Of a stretch of 59,253 nucleotides of DNA, positions 43,147 through 52,357 are shown piece after piece. The notes beneath the pieces are model-generated. The model was not told the origin of the DNA, ran no database searches, and saw nothing but the letters and a program-made list of their open reading frames with translations. The translations under genes were made by a program, and so were the position numbers. Where the stretch lies: the sequence record DRR378314_405. One strand, 5' to 3'. Every line of letters begins with the position of its first letter. The first letter of the stretch is position 1.

Positions 43147-43259
43147 AACTTATCCTTTAATAATGAGGGTCTCAAGAATTCGGCAAACGGCGAAATCTAG
43201 CAGATCTAAAACCCAACGCAGAGTCTTTTCCATTATTGACAGGCATATGTGAATGTGTT

Positions 43260-43276
43260 TTTTCACTTTATGGAAA
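43260..43276. promoter_or_regulatory. Candidate IclR-family operator (site 2)
   Basis: TTTTCACTTTATGGAAA, 16/17 identical to 40980-40996, just downstream of TTGACA at 43236. Confidence 0.6.
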
Positions 43277-43327
43277 GAGTTCATGAAACTCTTCATCACA
43301 ACGAAAAACAATAAAAAGAGTAGCCAA

Positions 43328-44533
43328 ATGGACCTCAACCTCACTGACAAGCATATTGCCTTCCAGACGGAAGTTCGCGACTTTATCGATCAGAGCCTGT
43401 CTGACCGCCTGAAACAAGACACGGTCATCCAGGCGTCGATCCGCACCGATCCGGACACGGCCAATGAATGGGGTCGTATCCTCGGCCAAAAAGGATGGCT
43501 TGCCTATAACTGGCCAACCTCTATGGGGGGTCCGGGCTGGGACGTGGTCCAGCGCTATATCTTTGAATATGAATGTGCCAAGGCGGGGGCACCAGCCATC
43601 AATTCCATGGGCTATCGGATGATCGGCCCGCTGATCGGTAAATTTGGCACAGATGCGCAGAAAGAATTTTACCTGCCGCGCATCCGCAGGCATGAGGATA
43701 GCTGGTGCCAGGGCTATTCAGAGCCCGGCGCAGGTTCCGACCTGGCATCCCTGCAGACAAAAGCCGTTCTGGATGGGGATGCGTATGTCATTAACGGCAC
43801 CAAGATCTGGACCACTGGTGCGCATTACGCCACTCACTGTTTTTGCCTCGTTCGCACCTCATCAGAGGGGAAGAAACAGCAGGGGATCTCCTTCTTGCTC
43901 ATCGATATGAACACGCCCGGCATTGACATAAAGCCGATCATTTCCATTTCCGGTGATCATGAACTGAACCAGGTTTTCTTTGATGATGTGCGTGTCCCGA
44001 AGGAAAATCTGATCGGTGAGGAAAATGACGGCTGGACCGTTGCCAAATACCTGTTGGAATTTGAACGCGGCGGCGTTGCCTATACACCGGGCTTGAAAGC
44101 CGGTCTCGATAATGTGCGGGAAATTGCCAAACTGGAAAAAGACAATGGCGGTGCACCGCTCATTGACGATCCGGATTTCAATCGAAAACTGACGCAACTG
44201 GATGTCCGCCTGCAAGCCGCCGAATTCACGGAAAAACGCTATATGTCTGCCTTAAGCCAGGGTCAAAACCCCGGCGCGGCTTCCTCTATGTTCAAACTAA
44301 CCGGATCAGAACTGCTACAGGATATCGGTGAACTTCGCATGGAAGCCACAGCCTATTACGCCTTGCCCTACCTGCCGCAATCACGCGAACCGGGCAGCAA
44401 CGTGACCTTCCCCGGCCCGCAACATGCCATGACCGCGACAGCCAAGTATCTGAACGGTCGGGCCTCCACAATTTATGCAGGCTCCAGCGAAGTGCAAAGA
44501 ACCGTTCTCTCTAAACAGGTGCTCGGCCTCTAA
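43328..44533 (+). CDS. Acyl-CoA dehydrogenase (PimC/FadE-like)
   Basis: WCQGYSEPGAGSDLASL, NGTKIWTT, NQVFFDDVRVP, LEFER, TIYAGSSEVQR. Confidence 0.93.
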   Translation: MDLNLTDKHIAFQTEVRDFIDQSLSDRLKQDTVIQASIRTDPDTANEWGRILGQKGWLAYNWPTSMGGPGWDVVQRYIFEYECAKAGAPAINSMGYRMIGPLIGKFGTDAQKEFYLPRIRRHEDSWCQGYSEPGAGSDLASLQTKAVLDGDAYVINGTKIWTTGAHYATHCFCLVRTSSEGKKQQGISFLLIDMNTPGIDIKPIISISGDHELNQVFFDDVRVPKENLIGEENDGWTVAKYLLEFERGGVAYTPGLKAGLDNVREIAKLEKDNGGAPLIDDPDFNRKLTQLDVRLQAAEFTEKRYMSALSQGQNPGAASSMFKLTGSELLQDIGELRMEATAYYALPYLPQSREPGSNVTFPGPQHAMTATAKYLNGRASTIYAGSSEVQRTVLSKQVLGL

Positions 44534-44550
44534 ACGCTTCTGATCTCTTG

Positions 44551-44840
44551 AAATAGCCCGCGGCCAAGCACACGGCTTTGCCCCGGGCATTCTGGACTGT
44601 CTTCACCCCTGAATTATGACGGTTGCGTGACGATTTGTGCCTGTCATCACGTTTACCGCTATTCTGACTTGCTGTTCGCCGGGCAACTGTTAGAAGTAAA
44701 AGGAGGGCTGGGTGACTTCGGCCAGCGTAACGCTGCTTGGTTCAAACGGCGCCGAGTATACCCCCATATACCGGCAGCCTAAGCCGAAGCCCCCATCTCG
44801 ATAAAAGTGAAAGACACTTTAAATCCCGATTTTGAATAGT
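44551..44840 (-). ncRNA. Candidate structured non-coding RNA of about 290 nt (family not recognised)
   Basis: Downstream of a near-consensus sigma70 promoter; long stem 44709-44723/44782-44795 enclosing smaller hairpins; CCCUCCUUUU tract; terminal GC hairpin 44556-44588; no ORF of 60 aa or more. Confidence 0.5.
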
Positions 44841-44845
44841 AGCGA

Positions 44846-44874
44846 ACTATAGGTTTGTATTTATTGAGCGTCAA
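44846..44874 (-). promoter_or_regulatory. Sigma70-type promoter TTGACG-N17-TATAGT
   Basis: 5/6 match at both hexamers with exact 17-bp spacer; lies downstream of the MCP terminator. Confidence 0.7.
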
Positions 44875-44911
44875 TACAGTTTCTAAGTTCAACTATTTGG
44901 TGCTAAAACAT

Positions 44912-44941
44912 AAAAAAAGCTGGCCTTAAGCCAGCTTTTTT
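44912..44941 (-). terminator. Intrinsic terminator after the MCP gene (bidirectional form)
   Basis: aaaaaaagctggc-ctta-agccagctttttt. Confidence 0.85.
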
Positions 44942-44958
44942 CTTGAGCTTTATAGGTC

Positions 44959-46728
44959 CTACAAAGCTTTCACATTCTCCAGGAAGCCGCTGATATCAGT
45001 TTTCAGAACATGATTGTTCTGATCCAGGCTACCCACGACCTCCCGCTGATTTCCGGCCAGCTTCTCAGTCTCCAGCGCAGCACTGGCAACTTCACTGACC
45101 ACCCTTGCAACCTCGGCTGTTCCTTGAGAGGCTCTCTCCACATTCTGGGCAATTTCATTTGTCGCCGCGCCCTGTTCCTCAACCGCGCTTGCAACGGCAG
45201 CGGTCAGTTCATCAATTTTGCCAATAATATCCCCGATCCCAAGAACAGATGTTGCTGCGGCAGATGTCTCGCTTTGAATTTCGGCAATCTTGTTGGCGAT
45301 ATCTTCTGTCGCCTTGCTGGTCTGTGTCGCCAGGTTTTTCACCTCACTGGCCACCACCGCAAAGCCTTTACCCGCTTCACCTGCACGGGCAGACTCAATC
45401 GTGGCATTCAGCGCCAGCAAGTTTGTCTGATTGGCGATGTCGCTAATGATCTGGATAACCTGACCAATACTTTCCGCCGCTTCGTTCAGCGCTTCAACGC
45501 GGGTATTGGTTGTTTTAATTTCAGAGACAGCCGTTTGCGATACTTCGGATGCCTTGCTCATCTGGCGGGAAATTTCACTGATTGAAGACGACAACTCAGT
45601 CGTCGCCGCAGAGACGGTTTGAATATTTCCAGAGGCCGAATCAATACTGGAGGACGCATCTTGAGACAACCCTTGCGTCTTCTCGGCATTGCTGAACATG
45701 GTGGATGCCGACTGGCTCACCGCACTGACCGATTCCGCCACAACCCCAAGGCCGGACTTCATCTTCTCATCGAACTCTCTCATAAGCTCTTCCAGCTTAC
45801 TGGCTTTCGCCCGTTCTTGAACCTGCTGAGCGTGCTCACGTTCAGTCGCTTCGCGCTGTTCAATCTCTTTCTGCTTCAGGCTTTCCATCGTCCGCGCCAG
45901 CGCCTGCTTTTCTTCTTTTTCACTCTCTTGCAAGCGGCGCTGTTCAATTCCGTTATCCTTGAACACCGCTACCGATCTTGCCATTTCGCCAATTTCATCT
46001 TTGCGATCCGTGCCTCTCACCTCAATATCCAGATTGCCGTCCGCCAAATCGGTCATCAAATCTGTAATTCGGCCAATCGGGGTCGCAATTGACCGGGTCA
46101 AGACATAGCCTGCCGCCAGGGCAACAACAATCATGATCACCAGGCCAGAGACAACCGCAGTAAAGAAGCGGTTATTTGCCGATGCCTTCAAACTGGCGGC
46201 GTTTGCAGAAATAGCGCCCAGTTCTTCTGAAAGTTTGGTGGCCGCCGCATTAAACTGCCCAATCACAAGGCCCGGCTCACCGGAAACTTCAATGGCCCGG
46301 GCCTGGTTCACGGTCAGATAATTCCGCATCAGTTGAATTTGCACTTCGGAATATTGCGTCAACCATTTCTGATACGCGTCTTCCATTGTCGTGATCGTGG
46401 GTACCAGTCCTTCATGATCTTTTGCCAGCCCGACAAGACCCTGATGAAATTTGCTCACCATCTCGCCTGTTGTCTTATAGGCGCTTAACTCTTTACGGTC
46501 ACCGGTCAGCAAAAAGGACGTTAAATGCTGACGCTGCGATGCGAACCCGCGTTGATATTGAAGATAGGCAACACCCAGATCCCGAACAGATTTATTTTCA
46601 CTGTCAGCACGCTGAATATCATTCATGGAGGTCAGGGAAATCGCCGACATGATGACAACAATGCCAATCAGTACAGCAAAACAGACAGTTAGTTTTTTCC
46701 CAATTTTCAGATTTGCGAGAAAATTCAT
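44959..46728 (-). CDS. Methyl-accepting chemotaxis protein
   Basis: Two TMs, CHASE3/4HB-like periplasmic domain, HAMP (RKDEIGEMA), [34 protein letters not shown]. Confidence 0.95.
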
Positions 46729-46754: not shown

Positions 46755-47369
46755 CTAATTTGCTGACTTGCGGCGCTGCAACTCCGTCAGGTTATATTCA
46801 ACAGTCACCGCGCCGATTGGCTGATTGTTTTTGTCAGTCAGGCTCATGTTGATCTGGGTCCGCCAGGTTTTACTCGCGTCATGATACTCTGGCTCATCAA
46901 TGAAAACGGCTGTGGCGCCCACCGGGAAGGTTTTTTGAAACTTTCCTTCATCGCCCTGCCAAAAATCAGAGGTAATCGCGCTTTGCCCGACATTCAGCCC
47001 ATTGGCGTCCATCACAAAAATCTCGGTAAACAAACCGCTGGAAGCCGCTTGAATTTGGGTCAGATAACTGGATAAGGGACTGCTGAGGGTGGTTGCGATC
47101 AACGGCTGATCCTCTGCCTCCCGTTCTGCCCGCCACTGCTTGTCAAGGCGATCAATATCCTCTTGAGAGACGTCTTTGTAAACGCGGTTTTGCGAAGATA
47201 CCGAAATTTCAACAACCGGATTTTCCATCCATTTGCGAATTTCAGTCAGCTCTGTCTCTGCGATGATTGAGGTACTTGGCGCCGCCTCTTTTGCATGCGC
47301 AATCACTGGCAATCCAAAAATAAACAGAAGCCCCACACCAGCCAACTGCTTCAAAAACCCATGCTTCAT
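46755..47369 (-). CDS. Stand-alone periplasmic Cache/PDC-like sensor protein
   Basis: Signal peptide (..IAHA), EIFVMDANGLNV, SDFWQGDE, PIGAVTV; no TM; 26 bp upstream of the MCP. Confidence 0.65.
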   Translation of the reverse strand: MKHGFLKQLAGVGLLFIFGLPVIAHAKEAAPSTSIIAETELTEIRKWMENPVVEISVSSQNRVYKDVSQEDIDRLDKQWRAEREAEDQPLIATTLSSPLSSYLTQIQAASSGLFTEIFVMDANGLNVGQSAITSDFWQGDEGKFQKTFPVGATAVFIDEPEYHDASKTWRTQINMSLTDKNNQPIGAVTVEYNLTELQRRKSAN

Positions 47370-48015: not shown

Positions 48016-48357
48016 TTAAGCAGGAGAGAAATTATTCGGCGGCCTACCCGGTAGGCTTGCCCTAAAACTGACCGCCACATCATGTGTCAATCGGAATGGC
48101 TCCGATCCAGTCAAAAACCAATGGGCTTCAGGGAACAGGCTGGCGAACAGGGCAAATGACTGGATATGCAGGCAATAACCGCCCGTCAGCCCCTCACAAG
48201 TAACAAGTTGGGCGTGAGGATCCGTTTCGCAATTCGAAGTGATCCCCTCGCAGTCTTCACAAATGTGGGGTTCATCCGCAGCCGCAAGCCCGGCGGGGAG
48301 TAAAGGCCCTAAAAGGGTCATCAAAACTATGATGAATGACAATATGGATCTAATCAC
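48016..48357 (-). CDS. Small exported Cys/His-rich protein (DUF2946/CopL-like architecture)
   Basis: GTG 48357 with AGGA SD; signal-like segment, HICEDC plus three further Cys, C-terminal LPGRPP. Confidence 0.55.
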   Translation of the reverse strand: MIRSILSFIIVLMTLLGPLLPAGLAAADEPHICEDCEGITSNCETDPHAQLVTCEGLTGGYCLHIQSFALFASLFPEAHWFLTGSEPFRLTHDVAVSFRASLPGRPPNNFSPA

Positions 48358-48421
48358 GGTCTTCCTGATCGGGCTAGAGGGAATTGACCAGATCGGCTTA
48401 CCATAAAGGTAATCGATTTGA

Positions 48422-50077
48422 CTAGCATTTTGCCTGCAGCAATCCCCGGCCGTATAATCGGTCCTGACCCTCAGTCCCAAGCCGCAATGCTGTTTGGCTC
48501 AGGATCCGATCCAGAACCTGTCCAGACAGATTTGGATTTCGCGCCACATATAAGGCGGCGATGGCCAAGGCATATGGCGCCGCAAAAGACGTTCCGGTTT
48601 TATACGCCCCGCCGCCATCCGGGGTTGCCATCCAGATATCCACCCCCGGCGCTGCGTAAGCGATGTAATCGCCCACATTCGCATTTGGATATAATTGTTT
48701 GGCGGCATCAATGGCGGTGACCGCAAAAATCCCTGGATAAGCTGCGGGATAGGCTGCACCTGCATCCGGTCCGCTGTTCCCCGCGGCGGCAAATAAAATC
48801 ATGCCTTGGCCCAACGCCAACCGGGAACTGCGTTCCAGAACCCGGTTTTGACTTAAAGTCGCCAGGGAAATGCTGACAAGCCGCACCTGTTCAGAGGCCA
48901 GCCAGTTCAAGCCCCGGACAATCGCCGTTACCCTTGCCAAAGGCCCGCTTTGTCCGCGTCTTAAAACAACCGCATTATAAAGGTTCGCTTTTGGTAATAA
49001 TCCGAAAATCCCCAGATCCGGGGCATCGCCAACAAGAAGGCTGGCGATTGCGGTCCCATGCCCCTGATCCGGTGCCACCGTCCCGATGAACGCGCTTTGG
49101 CGGATGGTGGCGGATTTAAACGCCGGATGCGCTGTCTTTATGGTGCCGTCCAGTAATCCCAGCTTGATCTTCGCTTCAACCTGATCACAGGCCGTTTTGG
49201 CGGGCCATTTCACCAGTGCATTTGCAAATAACCGGGGCGCCGGAGCGGAAGCGGCCTGCAGATTTGCATTCAGATCAATGCTGACATTGGGAAACAGGGC
49301 TCTGAATTCAGTGATAAAGGACTGAACATCTGTTGCGGTGATCACCAGCAAAAACTGCTCCAGCCCTTGCAGATTATAGCTTTCTGAAATCGGGATATTC
49401 CGGGCGGTCAGTTCGGCGGTCACGGCTGGCAATTCCGCCGGTGCGCCCATTAACAGAATCTCAGCGCTTTGTGCGCCCGCCCGGTCAGTACAGGGACGAA
49501 GGCTCAAACCAGTGTTGATATCCGAACCGGGCTTCAAGGACGCCAAGATCACCTCATAGCGCTGACTTTGAAGATCGGCAGTCGCCGCCAGTTGCAGGGC
49601 TATTTGCCCCGCGCTCACCCCGACGATCCTGACCTTGAGCTTCTGGGAGGAGGACAGCAGAAAGGCAGAAGTGATATCCAGTTGATCAAAGCCCTGCCCC
49701 TGCAGCAAAAAAGTTTGTCCCGGTGCAACACATCCCGGCACCAGCCGCGCAAAATTCAGGCGCGGTGCCGGCCGGTCCGCTCCGTTGGCAGATGGCTGCG
49801 CTGCAGGCCCCCCAGATGTTTGCCCTTCTCTTCGTCTGTCATTTTTTGGCGCCCCTGTTGGATCCCGCTGCGGCTCAGTCGCCCGGATCGGCGCGCTGGA
49901 TGAGGGGCGCGACGGCGCGGTGGGCGCCGTGCCGGGGACGGTTTGGGATGCGGATCCGGTCCCAGTGCCGTGCCCAGTGCCAGGGATTGAGCCCGGGATT
50001 GAACCCGGGCGCGTCTGGGCTGTTGCCACTCCGCCAAGGAGAAGCAAACAGATCATCACAATTGCGGTTCGCATCAC
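48422..50077 (-). CDS. Secreted S8 subtilase-family serine peptidase
   Basis: Signal peptide; triad LLDG, HGTAIA, GTSFAAP; oxyanion AAAGN; Pro/Gly/Ser-rich N-terminus and an Ig-like segment. Confidence 0.9.
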   Translation of the reverse strand: MMRTAIVMICLLLLGGVATAQTRPGSIPGSIPGTGHGTGTGSASQTVPGTAPTAPSRPSSSAPIRATEPQRDPTGAPKNDRRREGQTSGGPAAQPSANGADRPAPRLNFARLVPGCVAPGQTFLLQGQGFDQLDITSAFLLSSSQKLKVRIVGVSAGQIALQLAATADLQSQRYEVILASLKPGSDINTGLSLRPCTDRAGAQSAEILLMGAPAELPAVTAELTARNIPISESYNLQGLEQFLLVITATDVQSFITEFRALFPNVSIDLNANLQAASAPAPRLFANALVKWPAKTACDQVEAKIKLGLLDGTIKTAHPAFKSATIRQSAFIGTVAPDQGHGTAIASLLVGDAPDLGIFGLLPKANLYNAVVLRRGQSGPLARVTAIVRGLNWLASEQVRLVSISLATLSQNRVLERSSRLALGQGMILFAAAGNSGPDAGAAYPAAYPGIFAVTAIDAAKQLYPNANVGDYIAYAAPGVDIWMATPDGGGAYKTGTSFAAPYALAIAALYVARNPNLSGQVLDRILSQTALRLGTEGQDRLYGRGLLQAKC

Positions 50078-50703
50078 TTGCTCTGCTGACTGGCGCTTTC
50101 GGCCTGAACCGTATCGATCAGATTGCGCCGGGCTTTCAGCTTTTTAAGTGCCGGGGCCGGCTCGCCGGGGATGGAAACCTGATACACACCGATCGCTGAC
50201 GGGCCGTTGACGATCCGTCCCTTGACCGACAGAAGCAGGGCGCGAATGTCTTCTTCCTTGGCCGTGGGAATAAAGGTGACGCTATAAAGCGGACCCTGCA
50301 GCGCCATCATCTGCTGACCGCTTGCGGCAACCAGATCCTCATCTGACAGATTGCTTTGCTGCACCATGAAGAAGCTTTGCACGGCCAGTAAAAGACAGGC
50401 GGCAACGGCGGCCGTCTTCCAGCCCCATTTCATCACGTTGTCATTGGCCCCGCCGGTCAACTGGCTGAACTCACTCTCCTTCTGCTCGGAGGCGAGGGAT
50501 TTTTGAAGGCGCTTGAGTCCCAATTCACCGGGCGAGCTTTCCATCTGCATGTCTTGCATTTCTGCGCGCAAAGCCTGCAGCATCTCTACTTCCGCTTGCA
50601 GCTCTTTGCTTTTTGCCAGCGCGGCTTCAACCGTTGCCACTTCCGCCTCAGATAAGGTTCCGTTCACATAAAACGGCAATAGCTGTTCAATTTCTTTGCT
50701 CAT
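50074..50703 (-). CDS. Single-TM anti-sigma factor
   Basis: LLPFYVNGTLS N-terminal anti-sigma domain, TM AAVAACLLLAVQ, C-terminal alpha/beta domain; ATGA overlap with the sigma gene. Confidence 0.8.
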   Translation of the reverse strand: MSKEIEQLLPFYVNGTLSEAEVATVEAALAKSKELQAEVEMLQALRAEMQDMQMESSPGELGLKRLQKSLASEQKESEFSQLTGGANDNVMKWGWKTAAVAACLLLAVQSFFMVQQSNLSDEDLVAASGQQMMALQGPLYSVTFIPTAKEEDIRALLLSVKGRIVNGPSAIGVYQVSIPGEPAPALKKLKARRNLIDTVQAESASQQSK

Positions 50704-51251
50704 ACTGTCCCTCCTAAACGGTTGGACAAACAGTTTTTCATCAACTGTTTTGCATGGAATATACGGGTTTTGACCGTATTTTCCGGACACTCGACGACTG
50801 AGGCAATTTCCCCATATGCCATGTCCTGCAGGAAGGCCAGTTCGATGACTGTTCGATGGGGCAGCTTCAGCTGTTCAAGACAGAACTGAATATGGGCCCC
50901 ATTTTCCTTGGATGCAAGACAGGCCATTGCATCCGCACTGTCATCGGCGATTTCCGGGATGCTATCACTATCCACGATCACTTTGCCATTCTTGCGCATA
51001 CGATCCACCGTTTTGAAATAGGCTATTCCAAATAGCCAGGTTGACACTTTCGACCGCCCCTCGAAAGTCTCGGCTTTTCGCCAGACTTCCAGGAACGTCT
51101 CATTAAGTATGTCGGCCGCTTCAAACGGATCGTTCAATTTTTGTTTGATAAAATGATAAAGCCGCTTTTCAAACAAGCGGTAAAAATCAGCAAAGGCCGC
51201 TTCATCGCCCTTGCTGATTTTGGTGAGTAAGTCTTGCTCAATATCGCTCAT
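50700..51251 (-). CDS. ECF RNA polymerase sigma factor
   Basis: GDEAAFADFY, ETFLEVW, STWLFGIA (region 2); YGEIA..PENTVKTRIFHAK (region 4.2). Confidence 0.95.
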   Translation of the reverse strand: MSDIEQDLLTKISKGDEAAFADFYRLFEKRLYHFIKQKLNDPFEAADILNETFLEVWRKAETFEGRSKVSTWLFGIAYFKTVDRMRKNGKVIVDSDSIPEIADDSADAMACLASKENGAHIQFCLEQLKLPHRTVIELAFLQDMAYGEIASVVECPENTVKTRIFHAKQLMKNCLSNRLGGTV

Positions 51252-51262
51252 AGCCTGTCAGC

Positions 51263-52357
51263 TCACGGTACATAAAGGCTTTTGCGCGGGGATACACCGA
51301 TCACCTGACCACTGGCCCCGATGGCCCGTAAACGCCAGTCATAGACTTTGCCCGGCTGCAGATGTTCTACGGAAAAGGCGGCCAGGGACAGACTTAAATC
51401 CTTGGCTTTCACCAGCTTGCCACTGACAACATCCGGCAGGCCCTTTTCCAGAATTTCAACCTGATAGGCATAGGCGTTGGGCACCACCGGCCAGGAGAAA
51501 ACCGTATCGCCACTGACTGCGGCCCCTTCGGCAGGTGTATAGGTTTGCAGATTTTCCTCGGCAACGCCCTGCTGCCCCTGCAGAACAAAATATCGCAGGA
51601 CCGGAAATTCCAGACTATCCGTGTCGTCTTCGGCCACAAATGTCACCAGATAGAGCCCGATTTTATCTGTTGGCAAGGCTGGGCTGACAATCCGCGTCTG
51701 CCCCTGTCCGGCGCTGACCAGTTGCTGGCGCACCACCTGCAAGACCCGATACCGCCCGGATCCATAGCTGCTGGACGGATCCACAAGACGCCATTCCCCT
51801 TTTAACAGACCACTGCTGCGAAAGCGGATGTCCGCAACCGCCCGTTGCCGTTCCTTTTGGCGCACCACATCCGTTCTGGAGTTATTCTCAAAAGACAGTT
51901 CAATTCGCCGCAGCGATAAATCACCTGTATTGCCCGCGCCCGCCGCCACATTCAGCGAGCCGATAACCGTGTTTTCCGTATCCGTGAAAATCCGGCGAAT
52001 TGTGATACTGCCCGCCCCTGCTTTTGCGATCGTGGCGGTTTGGGATGGCGACAGGACAAATGTTTCTGTAAAGCGGATCAGATCTGTCCCGGCAATGCCA
52101 ACGGTGGAGGTTTCGCTTAATGTTCCGCCCAGATTTGTCAGCAAGGTTCCGCCGCTCCGCAACTCCGCATTGGCGGAACTGACTGTAACCGGCCCGCCGG
52201 TTGCTGAAATTCGGTTGATGATCCAGGTCACGGTAATCCGCGCACTTCCGGTGACGGGAACGGCAACACTGGCCGGGCTGGTCGTCACCGATGTGATCGT
52301 TGCACTGGCAAGACCCGGGGCCAGGCACAGCATCAGCAGAACCAGATATTTAATCAT
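51263..52357 (-). CDS. Secreted beta-rich protein with C-terminal FN3-like domain
   Basis: Signal peptide MIKYLVLLMLCLAPGLASA; Thr/Ser-rich beta strands; FSWPVV..AY.VE..LQPGKVYDWRLRA; overlaps the upstream stop codon. Confidence 0.7.
   Translation of the reverse strand: MIKYLVLLMLCLAPGLASATITSVTTSPASVAVPVTGSARITVTWIINRISATGGPVTVSSANAELRSGGTLLTNLGGTLSETSTVGIAGTDLIRFTETFVLSPSQTATIAKAGAGSITIRRIFTDTENTVIGSLNVAAGAGNTGDLSLRRIELSFENNSRTDVVRQKERQRAVADIRFRSSGLLKGEWRLVDPSSSYGSGRYRVLQVVRQQLVSAGQGQTRIVSPALPTDKIGLYLVTFVAEDDTDSLEFPVLRYFVLQGQQGVAEENLQTYTPAEGAAVSGDTVFSWPVVPNAYAYQVEILEKGLPDVVSGKLVKAKDLSLSLAAFSVEHLQPGKVYDWRLRAIGASGQVIGVSPRKSLYVP

Follow-up and report, generated by a model that had tools for sequence, protein, structure and literature searches.

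The minus strand of the DNA stretch analysed here (59,253 nucleotides of sequence record DRR378314_405, called the window below) contains a conserved promoter followed by a short conserved sequence that probably encodes a structured RNA. The element is located in a spacer of 425 nucleotides (positions 44534-44958) between a minus-strand gene for a methyl-accepting chemotaxis protein (MCP) and a convergent plus-strand gene for an acyl-CoA dehydrogenase. Comparison with related genomes suggests that the selected unit consists of the promoter and an RNA core of about 95 nt, which we model as a three-way junction. The RNA matches none of the described families and would represent a new family within a familiar kind, the bacterial small or leader RNAs. 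The original prediction for this spacer was larger: a near-consensus sigma-70 promoter driving a structured RNA of ~290 nt of unrecognised family, with an exposed tract resembling an anti-Shine-Dalgarno (anti-SD) sequence and a possible function as regulatory or sponge RNA. The promoter and the hairpins are indeed there, and the central claim, that a promoter here drives a structured RNA outside the recognised families, finds support. Conservation, however, backs only part of the ~290-nt RNA, and its extent, the anti-SD tract as a functional feature and the sponge idea were not supported.

The promoter, TTGACG-N17-TATAGT, is found on the minus strand at 44874-44846 (-35 hexamer 44874-44869, -10 hexamer 44851-44846; promoter scan), and the RNA is expected to start near 44839. 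As predicted, it lies past the intrinsic terminator of the MCP gene (44912-44942, minus strand; a 14-bp stem followed by a T run, found with the terminator scan), which is kept in the related genomes G011 and G027. Sited after the terminator of the upstream gene, the promoter appears to be separate from the neighbouring genes. By itself this promoter match is at chance level (1 site per 1.4 kb, compared with 1.1 +/- 1.3 in shuffles). Both hexamers and the 17-nt spacing are, however, invariant in all six complete copies of the element, the sequence between the hexamers being variable, and the promoter scan picks the same site in each of the five relatives (G011, G010, G027, G035 and G005). The DNA downstream of the promoter had been described as lacking a long open reading frame (ORF), and none of at least 60 amino acids lies wholly within the spacer. 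The palindrome TATTGA-CGC-TCAATA that had been noticed over the -35 hexamer is present in the window; among the relatives it is kept only in G011, there with a longer centre.

The conserved RNA core (44706-44800, minus strand, like all parts of the RNA) was delimited with BLAST, the covariance model R1 and alignment A4. It consists of CGAGAU, the 5' strand of a closing helix P1, a hairpin P2, a variable region P3, the 3' strand of P1 and AGCC. P1 has 13 pairs and is the long stem of the original prediction: its 5' strand GGGGGCUUCGGCU (44782-44794) pairs with GGCCGAAGUCACCC (44710-44723), which reads GGCCGAAGUC-A-CCC and contains a bulged A at 44713. P2 (44748-44779) likewise has 13 pairs and ends in the apex UAUAU-GGGG-GUAUA with a GGGG loop at 44765-44762; the predicted GUAUA/UAUAC helix is present as well. 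The P3 region (44724-44747) forms one or two short hairpins in separate minimum free energy (MFE) folds of the six cores, their sequences being unrelated in three subgroups, and provides no usable covariation. Each of the six cores, folded alone, adopts the same overall shape.

The pairing pattern of P1 and P2 is borne out by alignment A4, which is built from six distinct sequences, a seventh copy being truncated at the end of its contig. All cells of P1 (100%) are paired and three of its pairs are altered on both sides, and in P2 97.4% of the cells are paired, again with three pairs altered on both sides. Taken together, 98.7% of the 156 cells in P1 and P2 are standard pairs, compared with 34-43% when the partners are slid by one to three columns, and the six pairs altered on both sides compare with 0-2 after sliding. 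In a shuffle control, none of 500 shuffles reached the observed value on four of five measures, while 47 of 500 did so for the fifth, further pair types. The covariation that had been proposed as a check of the predicted RNA thus supports both helices. G·U pairs occupy 22 of the 156 paired cells, and with the opposite strand the pairing would drop to 84.6%; because these cells lower the pairing on the other strand, the minus strand is the one that is folded.

Invariant columns are found in the helices (35 of 52 paired columns) as well as in selected unpaired positions (13 of 45). The latter are the GGGG loop (columns 37-40), the A bulge of P1 (column 90), the flanking CG..AU and CC and two columns of the P3 region, whereas the junction strands vary. 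The whole P2 apex is invariant. The flanks CG(A/G)(G/A)AU and (A/G)CC could lengthen P1 by a few pairs (by eye; the bases are invariant and show no covariation), and in some copies, though not in G010, the GGGG loop could form a pseudoknot with the pyrimidine tract that follows P1 (by eye). An alternative pairing of the P2 base, GGCU/AGCY together with GCCG/CGGC, is impossible in G035 or G005, and the model fitting all six sequences was preferred. Folding is more stable than in shuffled sequences, with a moderate signal: z = -2.82 for 306 nt, with 1 of 100 shuffles folding as well, and z = -2.97 for the 106-nt core (-47.6 kcal/mol), with none of 200 as good. Taken alone, the sequence features of the original prediction do not exceed chance. 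A small protein as product was considered and rejected, since indels break the frame among the copies (by eye). No conserved ORF is present in the core, and in G010 the reading frame opened by an AUG in the P2 loop closes after 4 codons (by eye).

The conserved block starts at the -35 hexamer and stops just after P1. Since it ends this sharply, with different genes on both sides, we regard it as a discrete module. Between the window and G011, its closest relative (shared neighbour proteins are mostly 81-90% identical, 59-90% overall), identity is 87.6% in the core, 66.7% in the leader and 58.9% and 49.5% in two downstream segments. Three substitutions fall within P1 and P2 in this pair; all of them keep the pairing, and one changes a G-C to an A-U pair (by eye).

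Outside the core, the RNA as originally drawn fares less well. The 45-nt 5' leader (44801-44845) contains the predicted hairpin AAAGUG/CACUUU (44820-44804; folds), but this hairpin is lineage-specific and the leader cannot be aligned to copies more distant than G011. In the MFE folds, a hairpin stands immediately before the core in four of the six copies (window, G011, G035 and G005) and earlier in the leader in G010 and G027. The gcugc/gcagc helix is not retained, its two strands reading GCAGC and GCGGC in G011 (by eye). After P1 the sequence cannot be aligned between subgroups. The 3' tail (44556-44705) comprises a C/U tract, an 8-bp hairpin (44651-44626) and a GC hairpin (44588-44556); both hairpins exist in the window, yet these ~150 nt are 49-59% identical to the closest relative, and a short CGUGAYG block is common to four copies. 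The anti-SD-like tract CCCUCCUUUU is specific to the window, which speaks against a functional feature and removes the basis of the sponge claim. Because leader, tract, gcugc helix and the 3' ~150 nt are not conserved, the length of ~290 nt is a prediction for this genome only, and most of the 290-nt model does not seem to be under selection.

Searches for known families were negative at this locus, in agreement with the original prediction. With Rfam 15 (4227 models) at gathering score, the window gave two matches elsewhere: a bacterial small signal recognition particle (SRP) RNA (RF00169, 17107-17197, minus strand, 57.2 bits) and a small RNA of the mmgR/suhB family (RF00519, 18660-18736, plus strand, 46.2 bits), the latter fitting an alphaproteobacterial origin. 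When E-values up to 10 were allowed for 44400-45000, 24 sub-threshold matches appeared (13-27 bits, thresholds 40-114); none lies within the core and all of them touch the terminator of the MCP gene. ARAGORN found no tRNA or tmRNA gene in the whole window. In the full-text literature on Sneathiella and small or noncoding RNA we found no description of an RNA of this kind.

The element has a narrow distribution. A search with the spacer DNA gave matches in six of the 39 genomes of the order, the common part being the ~95-nt core, and covariance model R1 found the same six genomes with one copy each. The window likewise holds one copy (102.6 bits, E = 3.2e-25) and no further ones. Among 151 sampled genomes of the class R1 matched G011 alone, as did the motif pattern, with 3 mismatches allowed at most, among 401 sampled genomes of the class. 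The protein relatives of the dehydrogenase come from Sneathiella-like genomes (70-73% identity), and 80 loci around such relatives contain no similar DNA (blastn and nhmmer, best E-value 0.66). An early search of five related genomes gave weak matches only, of which the one in G005 later proved real. With its filters off, R1 found no convincing copy at 16 loci with a homologous gene for a 16x-aa protein in other genomes of the order; the best of them (17.5 bits, E = 0.019, over 47 nt) was not accepted as a member. The homologue of the upstream protein is 39-54% identical in the six carriers and 29-37% in the remaining genomes. As the closest versions of this protein are theirs, the six carriers look like one sub-clade, and the RNA gene seems to be confined to a small sub-clade of Sneathiella-like marine alphaproteobacteria. 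A repeat or mobile element (a repetitive extragenic palindrome or a miniature inverted-repeat transposable element) was rejected: each of the 6 carrier genomes has a single copy, the plasmid collection gave no match and the viral contigs gave 0 matches to the motif pattern.

A pattern scan of metagenomes returned nine loci. The cores of two, L102 and L106, are identical to those of G035 and G005. L099-L105 were set aside as an unrelated AT-rich repeat and L107 as a chance match (L099, L101, L103 and L107 were rejected by R1; L100, L104 and L105 by eye). The AT-rich stretch of ~250 nt is nearly identical on seven contigs (L099-L105) from three related metagenome samples; it contains GCTTCGGGTATACGCTATATATGGGGGTATAG, with GGGGGGTC and GGTGGGTGG boxes upstream, and has the appearance of an element that is repeated or very abundant. 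In the G035-type leader of L092/L102 a second TATAGTTCG is located 36 nt downstream of the promoter -10, apparently through a local duplication of the region that comprises the -10 and the start.

The genes around the element differ between the carriers (gene order is read in the direction of the RNA). The window and G011 carry genes for cytochrome c, a ~200-aa protein and the MCP upstream and, downstream, for the convergent acyl-CoA dehydrogenase, an amidohydrolase, a divergent IclR regulator and malate synthase. In the window the MCP gene (44959-46728, minus strand; Pfam MCPsignal and HAMP) is located upstream on the strand of the RNA, and the dehydrogenase gene (43253-44533, plus strand; Pfam Acyl-CoA_dh_N, _M and _1) encodes a protein with 90% amino-acid identity to its G011 neighbour. 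In G027 the upstream genes encode a 16x-aa protein, a ~200-aa protein and the MCP, in G010 cytochrome c and a 16x-aa protein; in both, the RNA is followed by an IclR gene and then by a short-chain dehydrogenase/reductase (SDR) gene and further genes. G035 (cytochrome c and a 16x-aa protein upstream) and G005 (a 117-aa protein and the MCP upstream) have genes for an enoyl-CoA hydratase (ECH), IclR, an SDR and an acyl-CoA dehydrogenase (ACAD) downstream. An MCP gene upstream of the RNA is thus shared by the window, G011, G027 and G005 and is absent there from G010 and G035. G011 has no orthologue of the IclR encoded downstream of the RNA in the other four relatives; its best match is 28% identical, compared with 61-64% among those four. 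Further upstream, an S8 peptidase gene is found in the window, G011, G010 and G027. In this S8 peptidase/cytochrome c block of the window, four ORFs have no Pfam match (46755-47369, minus strand; 48016-48480; 50074-50790; 51263-51949, minus strand). The 204-aa one among them adjoins the MCP gene and is 82% identical in G011 and 68% in G027.

What could this element do? We favour a small RNA that is independent of its neighbours and acts in trans, offering the invariant, G-rich apex of P2 to a partner; we give this reading about an even chance. Transcription of the RNA on the minus strand would start from a near-consensus sigma-70 promoter of its own, and the P1/P2 scaffold (13-bp P1 with its bulged A, 13-bp P2) would rigidly display the apex to its partner. 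This partner might be a C/U-rich RNA, which we suggest tentatively; a protein seems slightly less probable still. We favour a stand-alone RNA because the window and G011 keep promoter and core without a co-oriented downstream gene, because the first downstream gene varies and no expression platform is conserved, and because the conserved parts are the helices and the apex, not the junction. The contrast in the closest pair points the same way, the core having been held at 87.6% while the surrounding non-coding DNA fell to 49-67%. The very stable, GC-rich P1 would also fit a static scaffold better than a switching helix.

Several observations weigh against this reading. Four of the six genomes have a co-oriented gene that begins 90-165 nt past the core, which fits a 5' leader, and the promoter scan found no second promoter on the same strand between core and gene in those four genomes. 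No terminator-like site was detected on the RNA strand after the core in any of the six copies, by a scan that is as simple as the one for promoters; weaker hairpins with short U runs do occur after the core. Because the MCP gene of the same genome has a textbook terminator, such a lack would be uncommon in a small RNA that stands alone. The search for a conserved target was negative as well: the complement of the apex has 8-19 matches per genome in the five relatives, compared with 8-12 for the control, four exact extra sites lie in unrelated contexts, and the neighbouring 12 kb contain no consistent site. Three of the six MFE folds show a competing pairing at the base of P2. Finally, the covariation statistics are thin, since there are six distinct sequences, all from fairly close relatives.

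Two further observations were made in this context. In the window (44556-44588) and in G011 a GC-rich hairpin, different in sequence, directly follows the stop codon of the dehydrogenase gene; this hairpin may terminate transcription in both directions and so serve the RNA as well, although it fails the U-run rule of the scan. In G010, and in this genome only, an intergenic ATACCCCCATATACCCCCAC (locus L124, G010:C12:1266623-1266634) is the exact complement of the P2 apex; a terminator-like hairpin directly precedes it, and an ATG follows after ~45 nt.

The strongest competitor, to be taken seriously though less probable than the stand-alone RNA, is a cis-acting 5' leader (riboswitch-like, protein-binding or acting as a 5' stabiliser) for an acyl-CoA-metabolism operon (ECH)-IclR-SDR-(ACAD). 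The co-oriented genes located 90-165 nt downstream would be its natural clients, namely IclR in G010 and G027 and enoyl-CoA hydratase followed by IclR-SDR-ACAD in G035 and G005, and the finding of neither a terminator nor a second promoter before these genes fits it well, though the scans behind both negatives are crude. An acyl-CoA theme runs through the neighbours in all six genomes, including the convergent dehydrogenase of the window. In the window and G011 the operon would have been replaced, and the leader would either run antisense into the 3' end of the convergent dehydrogenase gene, which a transcript from the window's promoter would reach ~170 nt past the core, or be a recent orphan. 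A leader should, however, always be co-oriented with the gene that it controls, and the window and G011 both have a convergent gene next to the element, yet promoter and core have been kept there with structure-preserving change; G011 moreover lacks the IclR orthologue. The first gene downstream is not constant, being ECH or IclR, and an expression platform (terminator/antiterminator or sequestration of the SD sequence) was not detected in the sequence after P1, which is unalignable between subgroups. The distribution of invariant positions, with 13 of 45 unpaired columns invariant and the helices and P2 apex favoured over the junction, tends to speak against a leader, although the helices covary and six sequences are few for such a judgement, and the stability of P1 would be unlike that of a typical switching helix.

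A special form of such a leader would be a riboswitch. The core would then act as sensor domain in a hitherto undescribed leader that responds to a metabolite, with an acyl-CoA-related compound as candidate ligand; we consider this improbable. It would gate (ECH)-IclR-SDR-(ACAD) directly in four relatives and, in the window and G011, an antisense transcript into the convergent acyl-CoA dehydrogenase gene. To our knowledge, no riboswitch class for an acyl-CoA-related ligand is known from nature.

The conserved sequence might also act as DNA, for instance as an operator or a promoter-region site for a regulator such as IclR, with palindromes that mimic RNA helices. The block GTATAT-GGGG-GTATAC and P1 are indeed kept as sequence, 35 of the 52 paired columns never vary and IclR genes are nearby in all six genomes. 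We nevertheless think this quite unlikely. A G·U pair corresponds to an A·C mismatch on the other strand and would be meaningless in duplex DNA, yet 22 of the 156 paired cells are of this type, and six pairs have been altered on both sides. The block is located 45-54 nt downstream of the conserved promoter and not over it, and the strands of P1 are ~60 nt apart, unlike those of an operator. That the element has no function at all, being a chance promoter-like site with hairpins or the remnant of a decaying gene, is very unlikely given the conservation data: the promoter match by itself is no more than expected by chance and the 80 dehydrogenase loci lack similar DNA, but the element is conserved in six genomes with flanking sequences too diverged to align, the closest pair has kept the core much better than its flanks, pairing survives the substitutions and no conserved ORF is present.

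With this element, a well-delimited and covariation-supported RNA gene is added to a poorly studied lineage of marine alphaproteobacteria. The element is compact and tractable, with an invariant promoter, a 95-nt core and a G-rich apex, and offers a clean case for distinguishing a trans-acting RNA from a leader. Should the core prove to be a ligand-sensing leader of acyl-CoA genes, it would be of wide interest; as an ordinary lineage-specific riboregulator it would be a useful but modest addition.

Comparison with known RNA systems places the element among several kinds. Like tRNA and tmRNA it has a closing stem that starts with GGG and ends with CCC, followed by RCC, and a multi-branch junction; unlike them it contains no T-loop or D-loop motifs (by eye), its closing stem has 13 bp instead of 7 and ARAGORN does not detect it. 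The long stable closing helix, the conserved bulge and apex, the strong promoter and the conservation of helix sequence are shared with 6S RNA, Y RNA/YrlA and SRP RNA. No model of these families matches, however, and the SRP RNA of the window is located elsewhere. 6S RNA is in addition much longer than ~95 nt and has a central bubble, which is missing here. Because only six of the 39 genomes of the order carry a copy, the RNA is not a housekeeping RNA.

With riboswitches and other leader RNAs, the element shares a conserved junction of several helices that immediately follows a promoter and, in four of six genomes, the location upstream of co-oriented metabolic or regulator genes. Some riboswitches and leaders control antisense transcripts, and as with these the element faces a convergent gene in the window. 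It differs from this group in that no Rfam riboswitch matches, the junction varies in sequence, an expression platform was not detected and the window and G011 have kept the element with no co-oriented gene downstream of it.

The small RNAs of alphaproteobacteria offer the last comparison. Many of them have C/U-rich anti-SD loops, whereas the conserved loop here is G-rich, the opposite. mmgR (RF00519, suhB family) matches it neither in sequence nor in structure, a row of hairpins standing against a three-way junction closed by a 13-bp stem, and the stand-alone small RNAs of the mmgR type differ from it in the terminator, which was not detected here. In its general design, however, the element is similar to mmgR: both are intergenic, single-copy RNA genes of ~80-100 nt with their own promoter and conserved stem-loops, and each is restricted to a single lineage.

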